A stretch of DNA of 64,000 bases from the NCBI GenBank assembly GCA_964400675.1, contig CAYNVO010000008.1, positions 51,119 to 115,118 of the forward strand. The letters run 5' to 3'. The position numbers were made by a program, and so were the translations under genes. The notes below the pieces were generated by a model. It was given only the letters and a program-made list of their open reading frames with translations. It was not told the DNA's origin and ran no database searches. This document shows positions 1,579-8,037 of this stretch, piece after piece. The DNA is from an uncultured Dehalococcoidales bacterium (GTDB lineage: Bacteria > Chloroflexota > Dehalococcoidia > GIF9 > UBA5629). Position 1 is the stretch's first letter. The number at the start of each line of letters is the position of its first letter.

Positions 1579-1596
1579 TGGTGGGGCTTACTGGAC
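1579..1596 (-). mobile_element. Degenerate duplicate of the tRNA-Val 3' end (att-like site), distal boundary of a ~2.5 kb islet
   Basis: tggtggggcttactggac matches tggtgggcggtactggac (4076-4093) at 15/18 positions in the same orientation, with AT-rich genes between the two copies. Confidence 0.55.
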
Positions 1597-1828
1597 GGAA
1601 AGAAGAACTTTTGCCCTGGCTTTCCGCCTCATAATATAGCCCACTGTTTGCCAAAATTGTAGCAACAAAGGCTGTCAAGCGCAAGGCAGAAGAGCCCTAT
1701 TTTTAGCCTTAGATTGTGTCTTTCTGCCAGCAGCTTAGGCTTCCCCCTAACCAATACAGCTTATGTTATTTCATATGCCCATCTTTTAACTTCAGATGCC
1801 AACCTGCAGGCTAGGCTTTCGTGTGGCT

Positions 1829-2362
1829 CTATGGTTGAACCTGTGGGCGCTTCATATTTTTCTTAAACCAAATCCAAGAGACGAGAGCACCAACTCCGGC
1901 TGAAATAATGGGATTCACTATCTTTTCCCAAAGAGTACGTTGCACAAGCACGTCATATGCCATTATGAAAGCAAATGAAAGCGATAACAGTGTATACATT
2001 ACGATATATTTCCTTCGCCTACTTGACTGCCAAAAAACGTCAATCAACATCGTAAGTAGAAGAAATATCGTTGATGTCATGAATGAAGCGAAGGGTATTG
2101 TCGTAGATATAGCCCATTCCTTCTGAGTAGATGTCACTGATATAAATATGAGCCATATTATGATCGCGATACTGCTTGCAAATAGCATTATTCCTTTTCT
2201 TACTTTCGGGTTGGCTATGAAATTGACTGTTGTTTTGTGAAGTCTCTTTAGCAATTTCCAGACCAAGAAGAACATGATAGAGATTACCACTAAAGCCGAG
2301 GGGAGGTAAGCCAGAGTCATTGTGATATTCTTTATCACTTCTGTTATTTTCACTAAATCCAT
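1829..2362 (-). CDS. Hypothetical multi-pass membrane protein
   Basis: 177 aa ORF with about 5 long hydrophobic segments, AT-rich, RBS-like gaggc upstream; no family recognised. Confidence 0.65.
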   Translation of the reverse strand: MDLVKITEVIKNITMTLAYLPSALVVISIMFFLVWKLLKRLHKTTVNFIANPKVRKGIMLFASSIAIIIWLIFISVTSTQKEWAISTTIPFASFMTSTIFLLLTMLIDVFWQSSRRRKYIVMYTLLSLSFAFIMAYDVLVQRTLWEKIVNPIISAGVGALVSWIWFKKNMKRPQVQP

Positions 2363-2519
2363 ATTGCCTCATTATCTCATATACTCGAAAACATTACATG
2401 TTCTTTCATATCACTTAAATACTAGAGGGCCAGTTTGTTCAGATCATGTAAATAAACAGACCTATTTAACATAAACTGGACAAATGTGTACATGGAACCT
2501 AACCCGAAAAATCTTGGTT

Positions 2520-3395
2520 TTATAGATGAAGCAGATTTGCTAGGTTGATACGCTCTGGAATAATTACTACATGGGTTGTCTCTATATAGCTCTTGTCAAT
2601 ACAGCATTTCTTAAACTTTTTGCCACTTCCACAAGGACAAGGCTCATTCCTATCAACTGCAGGAATCTCATCATTGGGTTTCCTAATTTTCTTAAATTCT
2701 ACATGATTGAAATTTAATGGCTCCAGAACTTTATCTCTCATACCTTGAGCCAAATAAGCAACACCATTGAATTGCTCAGAAGTATCCGAAATTTGAACTG
2801 TGCATCTTTTGTCTGCTGGATTCAGAACAAAGGATACTTCTTCAAGTTGTTTAATTCGTTTTACGATACCATAAGCTTGGCGTCCCCTATAGAGTCCACC
2901 TGCAATGTGTTCGCATTCAAAACTATCAATTGACTTTCCGCATAGACTACATTCTGCTTCCTCTTTAACCATGCCGGTGCTCAAGAAAACCCGATACGGA
3001 TAAAGCTTCTCCAACTCGCCACATTGTCTTTCAATATGACTTAATATTGGGGGTCTTGGTTCATTTGTAAAACGGTAAATTGTGCGTAATCGGTCTTGAA
3101 CATCCTGTAAAGCTGACCAAGATTCAGAGAATTTGTTAGACACCAATAATTTCCAATATGACACGTAATCCTCGAAAAGGTTTACGAATTGTTTGAGTAT
3201 GAAACCATCATTGAATACGTCATCGGGGTCATTATCAGGGAATTCATCTATTTTCTTTGCTACTATTTCGGTTACAAGCTCTAATTCTTTGCTAGCTTCA
3301 TTCACATCAAGTTTCTGAATTAATTGTAGGGCATGTGATACCTTTACCCATACGGATTCAGCCACCACTCTACAGACATCTGTGCCAAACATCAC
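2520..3395 (-). CDS. SEC-C motif protein with a central Zn-finger/prohead-protease-like segment
   Basis: DRNEPCPCGSGKKFKKCC (SEC-C) at aa 248-265; LSTG...CSLCG...CEH..G.LYRG...LEEVSFVLNPAD at aa 138-195. Confidence 0.75.
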   Translation of the reverse strand: MMFGTDVCRVVAESVWVKVSHALQLIQKLDVNEASKELELVTEIVAKKIDEFPDNDPDDVFNDGFILKQFVNLFEDYVSYWKLLVSNKFSESWSALQDVQDRLRTIYRFTNEPRPPILSHIERQCGELEKLYPYRVFLSTGMVKEEAECSLCGKSIDSFECEHIAGGLYRGRQAYGIVKRIKQLEEVSFVLNPADKRCTVQISDTSEQFNGVAYLAQGMRDKVLEPLNFNHVEFKKIRKPNDEIPAVDRNEPCPCGSGKKFKKCCIDKSYIETTHVVIIPERINLANLLHL

Positions 3396-3398
3396 GAA

Positions 3399-3893
3399 TT
3401 AGCCTAAGAACGTGTTTATATTAAATTTCTTAGCAGCTTTTTCAAAACCTTCAACACTACCTTCATACGAGAATTTCTTTATGATTTCCTCAGCAGTCTC
3501 TCTATAATAAACTTGAACATGAATGTTTGCCTTATCATGTTTCAGCGCACCTTTGATACGATCGTAGATGTAGCTGGATACCAAACCAAGGAATACTTGC
3601 ACAGAAACATCACTAGCTAGAACAACTATAGGAATCCAGAAATCCTGCGAGTGCAAGCTTTTAATGCCTTCCGACTCTGCTACATCAATGGTAATATCTC
3701 CCTTGTTCTTTTTTAACCATTTTGCGAAATCATAAGTCTGAGGCATTAACACGTTATGTTGGGATTGTCTAGTAACATTCTCAGGCACACACAAGATGCC
3801 TTTAGTATTATTTTTCATGAGCGACGTTAATTCAGGATTATCATTTATTACTTCAATTCTGTATATATCATTGGGTTCAAGAACATTTTCCAT
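3399..3893 (-). CDS. Hypothetical protein with a central hydrophobic helix, apparently co-translated with the SEC-C gene
   Basis: 164 aa ORF, GGAG RBS upstream, stop lies 3 nt before the next start. Confidence 0.7.
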   Translation of the reverse strand: MENVLEPNDIYRIEVINDNPELTSLMKNNTKGILCVPENVTRQSQHNVLMPQTYDFAKWLKKNKGDITIDVAESEGIKSLHSQDFWIPIVVLASDVSVQVFLGLVSSYIYDRIKGALKHDKANIHVQVYYRETAEEIIKKFSYEGSVEGFEKAAKKFNINTFLG

Positions 3894-4075
3894 GGTCTCT
3901 CCACAACAAGCTTTTTATATATTATACTACTCACATAGTCATCTTTGGTATAGTAAAGGCCCGCCAAAAGTAGAACATACAAGGACTGTGTTAGTGCTGA
4001 GGGAGAGAGATTTAGAACATGGTCTGGTAAAGTTTGTACAAAAATTAGCTACGATTTGTAAACTTTTGCAAACAG

Positions 4076-4151
4076 TGGTGGGCGGTACTGGACTTGAACC
4101 GGTGACCTCTGCGATGTCAACGCAGCGCTCTAACCACTGAGCTAACCGCCC
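4076..4151 (-). tRNA. tRNA-Val (anticodon GAC), CCA encoded
   Basis: Reverse complement folds as a cloverleaf: GGGCGGT/ACCGCCC acceptor, GCTC/GAGC D-stem, CTGCG-TTGACAT-CGCAG anticodon arm, TTCAAGT T-loop, ACCA end. Confidence 0.97.
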
Positions 4152-4286: not shown

Positions 4287-5624
4287 ATGGGTAAAAAGGA
4301 AGGCGATGCCAGGGAATACGTCCTTAAAAGGACAAGAGAGCAAAATATTAAGTTCATACGGCTATGGTTCACCGACATTTTAGGCTTTCTGAAAAGCTTT
4401 TCCATCACTGCCGAACAACTCGAGGAGGCACTAAAAGATGGCATGGGCTTCGATGGTTCCTCCATACAGGGCTTTGCCCGCATCGATGAAAGCGATATGA
4501 TTGCCCTACCTGACCCCAACACTTACCAATTGATACCCTGGGGACTCAAAGAGCAAGGTGTAGCTAGAATGTTCTGCGATATATGCTGGCCCGGCGGGCA
4601 ACCTTTTGAAGGCGACCCACGGTATATATTAAAGAAAAACCTGAAGCGTGCTGCTGACCTGGGCTATACCTTTTACGTTGGTCCAGAGTTGGAATATTTT
4701 TACTTCAAGAACTCCGAAAATACAGAATTTCTAGACCTGGGCGGCTACTTTGACCTGACACCACCGGAGGTCGCCACAGACATAAGAAGAGAAACAATTA
4801 TCTTCCTCGAAGAAATGGGCATCGAGGTCGAGTACAGCCACCACGAAGTCGCCCCCAGTCAGCATGAAATAGACCTCCGTTACACCGATGCTTTGACTAT
4901 GGCAGACAGTGTAATGACCTATCGCTTAGTGGTAAAGCAGGTAGCCCAACAACAAGGGGTTTATGCCACATTCATGCCCAAACCAGTACTCAATGTTAAC
5001 GGTAGCGGCATGCATGTTCACATGTCGCTGTTCAAAGGCAGCAGGAATGCCTTCTTCGATAAAGATGCCCTCTACAATCTGTCAGAAACAGGCAGAAGTT
5101 TCGCCGCTGGATTGCTTAAACACGCCCCCGAAATCACTTCAATCTGCAATCAGTGGATAAACTCCTACAAGCGCATCGTCCCCGGCTATGAAGCCCCCTG
5201 TTACATCACCTGGGCTAAAAGAAACAGGGCTGACTTAATCAGGATTCCTCAATATAAACCGGGAAAGGAAACTGCTACCAGGATAGAGTTCAGGTCACCA
5301 GACCCGGCATGCAATCCATATCTCGCCTTCAGTGCCATGCTGGCCGCAGGACTCGAAGGAATTGAAAAGGGATACAAATTGCCACCGCCTGTAGAGGAGA
5401 ACGTCTTTGAAATGAGCCCGGAAGAACGTGAAAAGAGGAAAATAAAAACATTGCCCGGCAGCTTATACGAAGCTATACAGCTCACCGAAAAGAGTCAGTT
5501 GGTCAGAGAAGCTCTGGGTGACCATGCCTTAGATAGCTTTATCCAGAATAAGAAGGTAGAGTGGGATAGATACCGGACATACGTGACTGATTACGAACTA
5601 AAGAACTATCTGCCAATCCTGTAG
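4287..5624 (+). CDS. glnA: Glutamine synthetase type I
   Basis: FDGSSIQGF, EYSHHEVAPSQHEI, FMPKP..NGSGMHVH, NSYKRIVPGYEAP, RIEFRSPDPACNPYL. ATG at 4287 follows GGAGG, so it is preferred over the ORF-track start. Confidence 0.96.
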   Translation: MGKKEGDAREYVLKRTREQNIKFIRLWFTDILGFLKSFSITAEQLEEALKDGMGFDGSSIQGFARIDESDMIALPDPNTYQLIPWGLKEQGVARMFCDICWPGGQPFEGDPRYILKKNLKRAADLGYTFYVGPELEYFYFKNSENTEFLDLGGYFDLTPPEVATDIRRETIIFLEEMGIEVEYSHHEVAPSQHEIDLRYTDALTMADSVMTYRLVVKQVAQQQGVYATFMPKPVLNVNGSGMHVHMSLFKGSRNAFFDKDALYNLSETGRSFAAGLLKHAPEITSICNQWINSYKRIVPGYEAPCYITWAKRNRADLIRIPQYKPGKETATRIEFRSPDPACNPYLAFSAMLAAGLEGIEKGYKLPPPVEENVFEMSPEEREKRKIKTLPGSLYEAIQLTEKSQLVREALGDHALDSFIQNKKVEWDRYRTYVTDYELKNYLPIL

Positions 5625-6466: not shown

Positions 6467-7261
6467 CTACTTAATATCATAAACCATCTGGACGGTGACT
6501 GTAATCTCCATCTCGCCGGCGCTAATAGGAGTCGGTGCTGAAGCTGCACTCTCAGCCTTCAAAAAAAGGTCTCTAACCACTGTCTGCGGCACATACGGAG
6601 TGCTTTCAGAGATATACAGCAGCTTGCCCAGCTTAATATCAGCCGCCTGTGCCATCTGCTTAGCCTTATCTACAGCATCTCCCACTGCCTCAGTCCGTGC
6701 CTCTTTATAGTAAGGTGTCGGGTCATCAATAGTAAAACCTATGCTATCAATCCTGGTCAAGTTACCACCAGCTTGCGCCACCGCATCAATAACAGGTCCA
6801 GCCTTATCTATTTCTCTTATTTTGGCAACCACTATATTTGTCACCCTGTAGCCGGTAATCTCTTCCCTGTTTTCCTTCTCTATCCATCTGCGCACCGGAT
6901 ATATGCTAAAGCTCTGCGTCTGAATATCCTTTTCAGCCACACCGTTAGCCTTAAGTGCCTTCATGACTCCATTCATAGCCTCAACTGCATCCTCTTGCGC
7001 CTGCGCCACAGTCTTCGCCTCAGCTTCTATGCCCAGACTGAGCAAAACAACATCGGGGGTTACCGTTGCCTTGCCTTCACCAGTTACCCACAAGCCGACC
7101 TGCTGCTGGCTATAAAATATGCCACCCAGGTCCGGTGCTGCCACATAGGCGGAAATAGCCGGAGGCGATACTTGGGCACTTTCACCAACCACACAACCAC
7201 CAGCCCCAATCAAAATCACAGCCAAAATCACACTGGATAGAACTAACCAAAATTTCTTCAT
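6467..7261 (-). CDS. SIMPL/DUF541 domain protein with signal peptide
   Basis: VTGEGKATVTPD, IQTQSFSIYP, GYRVTNIV, AVQKAKQMA-like segment, PISAGEMEITVTVQMVY; N-terminal signal sequence. Confidence 0.9.
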   Translation of the reverse strand: MKKFWLVLSSVILAVILIGAGGCVVGESAQVSPPAISAYVAAPDLGGIFYSQQQVGLWVTGEGKATVTPDVVLLSLGIEAEAKTVAQAQEDAVEAMNGVMKALKANGVAEKDIQTQSFSIYPVRRWIEKENREEITGYRVTNIVVAKIREIDKAGPVIDAVAQAGGNLTRIDSIGFTIDDPTPYYKEARTEAVGDAVDKAKQMAQAADIKLGKLLYISESTPYVPQTVVRDLFLKAESAASAPTPISAGEMEITVTVQMVYDIK

Positions 7262-7455
7262 TTTAAGCCTCCTCGAATTTATTGCCTGGTTTTACTGACA
7301 TATTAAACTATCAACATCGCCTCTTTCATTATAATAGCATGCAGGTACTGATTGCCACCATATATAACGGTAAACCAGACCACCGAGTTTAGTTTAAAGA
7401 TGGCACAAAAAGCTGGCATGGATTATAATAACACAAGCTTAATTGTAACAAAACG

Positions 7456-8037
7456 ATGAGATTTTTCCGCGACTTCATCATACCTGTACTTTTCGGACTG
7501 GCTGTTTTCGCCCTTTTTCAAGTTACGGTTGGGAGCTTCAAAGTATACGGCTCGTCCATGTTGCCTACCATAGAAGAAGGCGATTATATAATGGTCAGCA
7601 AAGCTACTTATTTCTTTCATGAGCCACAACGCGGCGACATAATCGTGCTTCGTTCCCCACAAAACCCTGATTCAGACCTTATCAAGCGAATTATTGCCCT
7701 GCCCGGCGACACCATCGAAATTAAGGACGATACAGTATTTATAAACGATACCCCTTTAGTTGAACCTTACACTCTGGAGCCACCCCACTACTTTATGCTG
7801 CCCGAGGAAATTCCCACCGGTCACTATTTTGTTCTAGGTGACAATCGCAACAATAGCTCCGATTCACACAGGGGTTGGACGGTACCTCGAAAAAATATCG
7901 TCGGCAAGGCATGGATAACCTACTGGCCACCATATAGATGGGGGCCAATAGAACACTATAAGCCCAATATAGGCACGCGAACAGCCGAAGTCAGTGAACT
8001 CAGCCTGGCAATCAAAACACTATGTCCGATGAGATAA
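7456..8037 (+). CDS. lepB: Signal peptidase I
   Basis: GSSMLPT (catalytic Ser), LIKRIIALPGD (catalytic Lys), GDNRNNSSDSH. Confidence 0.95.
   Translation: MRFFRDFIIPVLFGLAVFALFQVTVGSFKVYGSSMLPTIEEGDYIMVSKATYFFHEPQRGDIIVLRSPQNPDSDLIKRIIALPGDTIEIKDDTVFINDTPLVEPYTLEPPHYFMLPEEIPTGHYFVLGDNRNNSSDSHRGWTVPRKNIVGKAWITYWPPYRWGPIEHYKPNIGTRTAEVSELSLAIKTLCPMR

Follow-up and report, generated by a model that had tools for sequence, protein, structure and literature searches.

Several bacterial immune systems sense the proteins from which phage heads are assembled. For CapRel(SJ46) and Lit the trigger is the major capsid protein, for Avs it is portal and terminase, and activation of type I cyclic oligonucleotide-based antiphage signaling systems (CBASS) is linked to the prohead protease. 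Here we describe a pair of adjacent genes from an uncultured Dehalococcoidales bacterium. The pair is located in a 64,000-nucleotide stretch of DNA (assembly GCA_964400675.1, contig CAYNVO010000008.1, positions 51,119 to 115,118), the whole of which is referred to below as the window. One gene encodes a large protein of 291 residues and the other a small hydrophobic partner of 164 residues. As a candidate defence system, the pair is similar to CapRel(SJ46), Lit, Avs and CBASS in having a proposed sensor keyed to head-assembly proteins, a defence-island setting and a small putative effector. It differs from them in that only here would the sensor originate from a fragment of a phage protease, and it has no sequence relation to any of them. 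The pair would represent a two-gene module of defence islands with a sensor of unprecedented origin.

Part of the large protein can be compared with the XkdF-like/Peptidase_S78_2 (PF14550) zinc-knuckle proteases of PHROG 16951. The likeness extends over approximately 65-75 residues and includes LSxG with its Ser, CSxCG...CxH, G..Y.G and EVSFV..PA(D). Unlike the XkdF-like proteases, the large protein has no N-terminal KPVLxxH half, contains a five-helix domain at that position and is not fused to a scaffold. Its gene is not situated between portal and capsid genes but is paired with the gene for the small hydrophobic protein, and its family has acquired a DKRC motif and a SEC-C motif that the phage proteins do not have.

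In SecA, YecA and YchJ, the SEC-C motif is a metal-binding element that also contacts SecB or ribosomes. The large protein shares the pattern CxCxSGx8CC, approximately 20 residues, with YecA, YchJ and the C-terminus of SecA, and its remainder is unrelated to these proteins. A SEC-C motif is also found in Rugutis, an anti-phage protein from a lactococcal plasmid that is the product of a single gene (359 residues) and has the motif at its N-terminus within an otherwise novel fold (PMC11381338). In the present pair, by contrast, SEC-C is C-terminal and optional and two genes are involved. Literature on SEC-C, prohead proteases or XkdF in defence yielded only Rugutis, and subscription-only publications may hold others. 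In PADLOC-DB v2.0 the large protein was matched only through its SEC-C residues 227-269 (PDC-S12 and CBASS E2 models), and the partner was unmatched. No description of the pair was found in the literature; systems in subscription journals or newer model sets could contain one. The pair is probably an undescribed defence module.

The large protein and its relation to prohead proteases

An AlphaFold2 model of the large protein, calculated from the family alignment, has a mean predicted local distance difference test score (pLDDT) of 92.3 and a predicted template modeling score (pTM) of 0.85. Five helices form the N-terminal domain, in agreement with a preliminary description of the locus, made from the sequence alone, that had proposed a helical N-terminus. 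They are followed by a beta domain with long strands at residues 137-149, 176-190, 229-240 and 270-280. A CCCH knuckle is located between the first and second strands, and the SEC-C motif between the last two. The helical domain, compared with the PDB using Foldseek, gave only non-significant matches to TPR, 14-3-3 and ferritin-like proteins. The motif that the preliminary description had read at residues 138-195 is present exactly as quoted: LSTG-x7-CSLCG-x7-CEH-x2-G-x-LYRG-x12-LEEVSFVLNPAD.

The large protein belongs to an extensive family. A word-indexed search recovered 44 full-length relatives with identities down to 26-30%, and an exhaustive profile search gave 965 representative clusters (50% identity) at E<=1e-10, a number that falls to 352 at E<=1e-30. 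The best 150 listed members are mostly approximately 250-310 residues long, with some shorter fragments and a single protein of 497 residues. In two representative proteins, P0278 (497 residues) and P0291 (258 residues), the family profile aligns twice, each time to a different stretch; together with the length of the former, about twice the usual, this suggests a duplicated or fused large protein.

Conservation was assessed in an alignment of 39 homologues with identities down to 26%. The invariant positions are W93, L131, P133, F137, S139, C149, C152, C161, H163, L168, Y169, G171, P193 and the SEC-C cysteines. The motif is not a product of chance, as judged from the alignment, because S139, C149, C152, C161, H163, Y169, G171 and P193 are unchanged in all 39 homologues. 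D195, K196, R197 and C198, each at least 90% conserved, make up the DKRC motif, which distinguishes the large-protein family from the phage proteases. The SEC-C motif noticed in the preliminary description is confirmed by PF02810, which matches residues 249-265 with 40.5 bits against a Pfam cut-off of 20.4 and names a motif rather than a function. This region also matches YchJ (E 5e-7) and SecA C-terminal peptides in the PDB. Many family members have a SEC-C motif, but it is an accessory and optional feature since it is absent from the large proteins of L012 (Halorubrum virus Humcor2), L098, L099 and L101 (L numbers denote comparison loci).

Relatedness to phage proteases is detected in the segment that joins the helical domain to the SEC-C region. 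The large protein has no match to a protease family of Pfam, and neither PF04586 nor PF14550 is reached at E<=1. In PHROGs, phrog_16951 matches residues 147-201 at E 4.4e-6, and a tblastn search against phage genomes yielded three informative proteins. Two of them, gp123 of Bacillus phage 0305phi8-36 (annotated 'protease/scaffold') and CDS0006 of Moorella phage MTATph1, have genes that come immediately behind the portal gene, with the major head protein gene two genes further on. The third is an open reading frame (ORF) of a gut phage contig, L014:4599-5513, which has the portal gene on one side and the major head gene on the other. All three are members of phrog_16951 and weakly match phrog_18299, a 'head maturation protease', and the gut phage ORF reaches 23.9 bits on PF14550 (Peptidase_S78_2, XkdF) against a cut-off of 24. 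Alignment of the family profile using hhalign gave 96.3% (E 1.8e-9, 74 columns) with gp123 and 96.8% (E 2.3e-10, 64 columns) with L014:4599-5513. When the phage proteases and the cellular family are aligned together, both groups keep the Ser, CSxCG, CxH, two Gly, a Val and a Pro without exception. S139, present in 39/39 members, aligns with the Ser of the three phage proteases, and the zinc knuckle is likewise invariant in the 39 members and the three phage proteases. The matches cover only the C-terminal 55-75 residues of the protease domain and not the whole domain.

On these alignments, a segment of approximately 70 residues is derived from the C-terminal part of the zinc-knuckle (XkdF/S78_2-like) branch of prohead proteases. 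The preliminary description had proposed the C-terminal half of a capsid-protease fold with HK97-type features and a zinc knuckle as an insert. The first of these proposals holds in the form of homology to the XkdF/S78_2-like zinc-knuckle proteins (hhalign 96-97%), and the proposed likeness to HK97 gp4 does not, being non-significant (3.4%). The insert has to be reinterpreted: the knuckle is common to the XkdF/S78_2-like subgroup, and the joint alignment indicates that it is inherited from that branch and not inserted.

The large protein contains nothing that corresponds to the KPVLxxH region of the phage proteases; the helical domain occupies its N-terminus. Among the 39 homologues, no conserved His was found other than the predicted zinc ligand H163. 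A canonical Ser-His protease is therefore unlikely, since the His-bearing half is missing and H163 is the only conserved His. The large protein is best placed outside the S78 and S78_2 families, yet is clearly derived from them by profile comparison; it is placed outside because the His half is missing, the match is not full-length and the gene is not part of a head module. PHROG 16951 itself is labelled 'unknown function'. Its members L014 4599-5513, L011 5566-6261 and L013 4701-6044 adjoin portal and major head genes or are placed between them, and 'zinc-knuckle prohead protease', scaffold-fused in some phages, could serve as the annotation of the group.

Conservation and genomic settings of the gene pair

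As the preliminary description stated, the two genes are on the same strand, 3 nucleotides apart, in AT-rich DNA. The 3-nucleotide spacing applies to the ORFs as annotated. Because homologues start MFxT, the large gene more likely begins with an ATG at 3392, and the spacing would then be 6 nucleotides. In the partner, an alpha/beta region at the N-terminus is followed by two paired hydrophobic helices in the center (residues ~85-110, W-x-P...LVSSYIY), and a Y-x-G motif is found at the C-terminus. No match to the partner was found in Pfam, NCBIfam, PADLOC, PHROGs or the PDB. The Kyte-Doolittle maximum over 19 residues is 2.08 for the partner in the window and 1.5-2.6 in most members, and in some partners a polar insertion splits the hydrophobic segment into two short helices. 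From hydropathy, membrane insertion of the partner, suggested in the preliminary description, is possible.

A homologous small gene is found directly upstream of the large gene in 13/13 intact, uncut copies, which span bacteria, plasmids, prophages and a haloarchaeal virus. A partner profile built from close relatives recognizes the ORF upstream of the large gene in L001, L008, L009, L095 and L098; the partner in Candidatus Brocadia (L001) has 37% identity (BLASTP, E 5e-46). A partner alignment of 20 sequences adds L101, L102, L104, L106, the Humcor2 virus and a P2-like prophage, and shares P37, K58, S82, P88, Y108, G115 and the C-terminal Y-x-G. Intergenic spacing in the 13 loci ranges from -65 to +8 nucleotides, and the pairwise identities of the two proteins are correlated (r = 0.95, 78 pairs). 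Relative to a 92%-identical relative, the ratio of non-synonymous to synonymous substitution rates (dN/dS) is lower for the partner (0.12) than for the large gene (0.37). These values indicate that both genes are under purifying selection, and the comparison of loci indicates that the two genes are a conserved unit, always co-inherited. A split protease in which the partner supplies the His-bearing half was considered and rejected: hhalign of the partner against gp123 gave 0.1%, and the partner has no conserved His.

In 8 of approximately 18 independent contexts, recognized defence genes are no more than a few genes away from the pair, which as a sign of enrichment is qualitative. The neighbours in L001 are an Eco57I-type methylase and a BsuBI/PstI endonuclease (type II restriction-modification), and those in L008 are a type I restriction-modification system and Schlafen/AlbA. 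HicAB, an AAA_15/21-HNH pair, AbiH and SocA/Panacea surround the pair in L009, and a truncated module in L007 is accompanied by Wadjet JetABCD, Schlafen/AlbA and RelB. Type I-C CRISPR-Cas is found near the pair in L103; an OLD-TOPRIM ATPase with a UvrD helicase (Gabija-like) and an SMC/helicase set in L104; AbiV with a type II endonuclease and methylase in L098; and the PADLOC candidate PDC-M57 in L095. The expectation that the two genes co-occur is thus borne out, often in defence islands. Head genes were found in none of the approximately 18 contexts.

Seven further contexts are on mobile elements: L099, L096, L097, L101, L100, L012 and the tRNA islet of the window. In L099, a P2-like prophage, the pair is located beside apparent gpD and lysis genes, and in L096 and L097 it is found at the ends of viral contigs beside apparent large serine recombinases, which would correspond to the ends of prophages or of integrative and conjugative elements; these neighbour roles were read from ORF translations and not from a family scan. 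The pair is intact on a Rhizobium conjugative plasmid (L101). A homologue annotated 'SecC motif-containing protein' is present in 210 PLSDB records, the L100 copy among them; most of the records are large conjugative plasmids from Enterobacteriaceae (Enterobacter, Citrobacter, Klebsiella, E. coli and Salmonella). The sole PLSDB copy examined (L100 8425-9687, Enterobacter hormaechei IncHI2A plasmid pEho7-1) looks decayed. Its partner is frameshifted, with Y-x-G in another frame, the N-terminal region of its large gene contains stops, and its SEC-C is degenerate (CPCGDSLKKYADCC); it adjoins an FRG-domain gene and insertion sequence elements. Two other copies, L007 5816-6732 and L097 1-939, have a large gene truncated N-terminally by in-frame stops and no intact partner upstream. 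The L007 copy abuts JetD of Wadjet, and the L097 copy is at the contig end beside the apparent serine recombinase.

One copy is carried by Halorubrum virus Humcor2 (L012 3180-4588, HrrHm2_025 and HrrHm2_020), a temperate pleolipovirus (PMC7911831). The pair is positioned between Rep and structural genes, is annotated 'hypothetical protein' and 'CxxC motif protein' (hhalign 98.9%), and has an acidic tail in place of SEC-C. The module in Humcor2 looks like accessory cargo, because tblastn found no equivalent full-length match in phage or virus records other than Humcor2. The two-gene operon is horizontally mobile.

The islet in the window and its expression

Coordinates of the features discussed here are given in the table below. 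The guanine plus cytosine (GC) content over 1750-4000 is 0.36-0.39, compared with approximately 0.50 in the flanks. The genes flanking the islet have housekeeping roles (GH130, glutamine synthetase, SIMPL, signal peptidase and phosphoribosyltransferase), and no phage genes were found near the gene pair in the window. Together with the adjoining tRNA-Val gene, these flanks agree with the tRNA islet, free of phage genes nearby, of the preliminary description.

Table. Features of the islet and of the large protein, in window coordinates
Feature	Position	Strand	Description
Multi-copy ~180-nucleotide element	1579..1754	-	tRNA-3'-end-like end GTCCAGTAAGCCCCACCA; core 1581-1625
Multi-pass membrane ORF, 177 residues	1829..2362	-	ORF list and hydropathy; inside islet
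Large gene	2520..3395	-	291-residue ORF, GTG start (290 residues from ATG at 3392)
SEC-C motif, residues 249-265	2601..2651	-	PF02810
Prohead-protease-derived segment, residues ~131-201	2793..3005	-	LSTG strand with S139, zinc knuckle, EEVSFVLNPAD strand
CxxC...CxH zinc knuckle (C149, C152, C161, H163)	2907..2951	-	Invariant columns; metal binding predicted from pattern
N-terminal five-helix domain, residues 1-130	3006..3395	-	AlphaFold2; helices 6-27, 31-50, 58-85, 89-109, 116-129
Small partner gene	3399..3893	-	164-residue ORF, ATG start
Upstream non-coding region of cassette	3894..4075	-	GGAGAG ribosome-binding site and sigma-70-like hexamers; conserved with relative's cassette
tRNA-Val(GAC)	4076..4151	-	ARAGORN; Rfam tRNA 66.5 bits; 3' end = one islet boundary

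A relative's contig (L004-L006) contains a cassette with 94.6% identity to window positions 2477-4093, but in entirely different flanks. The cassette in L004 is bracketed by two copies of a 180-250-nucleotide element, at 5139-5386 and 7249-7493. In the window, an imperfect direct repeat of 18 nucleotides (15/18 identical) connects 1579-1596, at the end of the multi-copy element, with the 3' end of tRNA-Val (4076-4093). The core of the element is present at 4-7 times the depth of the surrounding DNA in a lake metagenome, with several alternative flanks; DNA contig depth on the element is 197-337 vs 46, and contigs have loose ends at 1579-1581 and 1625-1629. An Rfam search of the 1579-1754 repeat gave no match. 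The element is likely the distal attachment (att)-type boundary of the islet; its copies may represent att-type sites or, alternatively, a small repeat that is mobile. In some metagenome and metatranscriptome contigs an additional A follows 4135, within tRNA-Val; these contigs probably stem from a related tRNA gene or a strain variant.

Low-depth contigs covering both genes are present in three lake metatranscriptome assemblies. Two metatranscriptome contigs, 3229-3418 and 3260-3462, span the gene junction, which fits a single transcript. In a promoter consensus scan, sites were no commoner than in shuffled sequence, and the hexamers upstream of the cassette represent a putative promoter only. 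The 177-residue membrane ORF within the islet contains four to five hydrophobic segments, has no family match and shows a metatranscriptome contig depth of 9-15 vs 2-7 on the two-gene module. It was rejected as a third component since likeness to the relative's cassette stops at 2477 and other loci have no counterpart.

Possible functions of the module

We lean slightly toward the pair being a conflict or defence module against phages or other mobile elements. In the mechanism that we propose, the large protein would be a pseudo-protease that keeps the substrate- or partner-binding surface of the capsid protease and does not cleave. It would recognize a phage head-assembly protein, either the cleavage region of the capsid or scaffold protein or the phage's own protease. 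Recognition would release or activate the small partner, and the hydrophobic helix pair of the partner would then damage the membrane and abort infection. This specific combination of a pseudo-protease sensor and a small hydrophobic effector is doubtful, and module and mechanism taken as one explanation are tentative, falling somewhat short of an even chance. In its most explicit form, a widespread module of bacteria and archaea, shared by their plasmids and viruses, would use a half capsid protease captured by the host as a dead 'substrate trap' for head-assembly proteins, from which a small membrane-active killer would be released; we regard this as speculative and rather doubtful.

Several observations weigh against this explanation. 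No known defence gene is located near the pair in the window, L004, L101, L102 or L106. In a Foldseek search of BFVD, the first, third and seventh matches were prohead proteases and the fifth was a Bacillus phage G protein, with probabilities up to 1.0, but all had E >=0.02 and none reached E 0.001, and Foldseek against the PDB returned no prohead protease with either the full model or a model of the C-domain (pLDDT 75). HK97 gp4 (Peptidase_S78, PF04586) has no zinc knuckle and no Pfam match in the large protein, and the best local alignment, which puts gp4 ALREISVCTFPAN on LEEVSFVLNPAD and has the register suggested in the preliminary description, is not significant (hhalign 3.4%). The Kyte-Doolittle value of the partner is only 0.8-1.4 in L101, L099, L102 and L012. 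The hydrophobic segment contains Asp, Ser and Gln; instead of spanning a membrane, it may be a helix buried in the protein core. The metatranscriptome contigs possibly include DNA carry-over.

An alternative that we consider unlikely, and that develops the domesticated protease of the preliminary description, is catalysis by the large protein as an atypical serine protease, in which S139 would act with a base other than His (K196 or a residue of the helical domain) and cleavage of the partner or of a phage protein would be the trigger. The invariance of S139 and its alignment with the phage protease Ser are in keeping with such activity, as is the conservation of D195, K196 and R197 just past the EVSxV strand. 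Against it, the His-bearing half of the fold is missing, and H163, the sole invariant His, belongs to a CxH knuckle that real proteases also have. K196 is lost in the most distant member (P0044/L009, DPFDMY), which weakens a Ser-Lys dyad, and the partner offers neither a conserved His nor any likeness to the missing half.

It is also improbable that the protease-derived domain serves as a decoy or poison subunit that pairs with the phage prohead protease, or replaces it in procapsids, so that maturation is blocked and the cell survives, with the partner as a chaperone or co-factor. The retained segment is the part common to real head proteases, and the module is found in a virus and in prophages, elements that commonly exclude superinfecting phages. 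This model leaves the invariant coupling to a small hydrophobic protein unexplained, however, and one carrier, the pleolipovirus Humcor2, has no HK97-type head. The homology, moreover, spans only approximately 70 residues.

The tight coupling of a small and a large gene on plasmids, at prophage ends and in tRNA islets, with toxin-antitoxin genes nearby in L007 and L009, is compatible with an addiction module of the toxin-antitoxin type that stabilizes islands, plasmids and prophages and has no specific link to phages. We give this a slim chance. No known toxin or antitoxin family is matched in Pfam, NCBIfam or PADLOC, degraded copies on IncHI2 plasmids persist with both genes broken rather than with an antitoxin alone kept, and the protease-derived domain indicates an origin related to phages.

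A cellular role unconnected with conflict, for example as a zinc- or iron-binding SEC-C adaptor at the ribosome or Sec translocon that resides in variable regions by chance, is highly improbable. The binding properties of the SecA, YecA and YchJ motifs and the PDB matches to SecA and YchJ peptides speak for it; the loss of SEC-C from several members, the patchy and mobile distribution with defence neighbours and an AT-rich composition foreign to the flanks speak against it. Finally, although part of the large protein stems from a phage head protease, a non-functional remnant of a decayed prophage head module is ruled out by the conservation data, given the absence of head genes from every context, purifying selection on both genes, 352 clusters with conserved full-length architecture, and a conserved N-terminal domain and partner that are absent from the phage proteases compared.

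Even if the pair does not act in defence, the large protein would be an unusual pseudo-enzyme, a half-protease that retains the nucleophile Ser and the zinc knuckle and has lost the catalytic His. If the defence role is correct, the pair would constitute a new family, with at least 352 clusters at 50% identity, in bacteria, conjugative plasmids, prophages and a haloarchaeal virus, and a role would be assigned to the recurrent, unannotated pair of 'SecC motif-containing', 'CxxC motif' or 'hypothetical' proteins. It would further provide a hypothesis on the target that is sensed, namely head-assembly proteins, and a new sensor design in which part of the virus's own capsid protease is recycled. 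Should the proposed mechanism also hold, this would be the first viral morphogenetic protease domesticated as an innate immune sensor.

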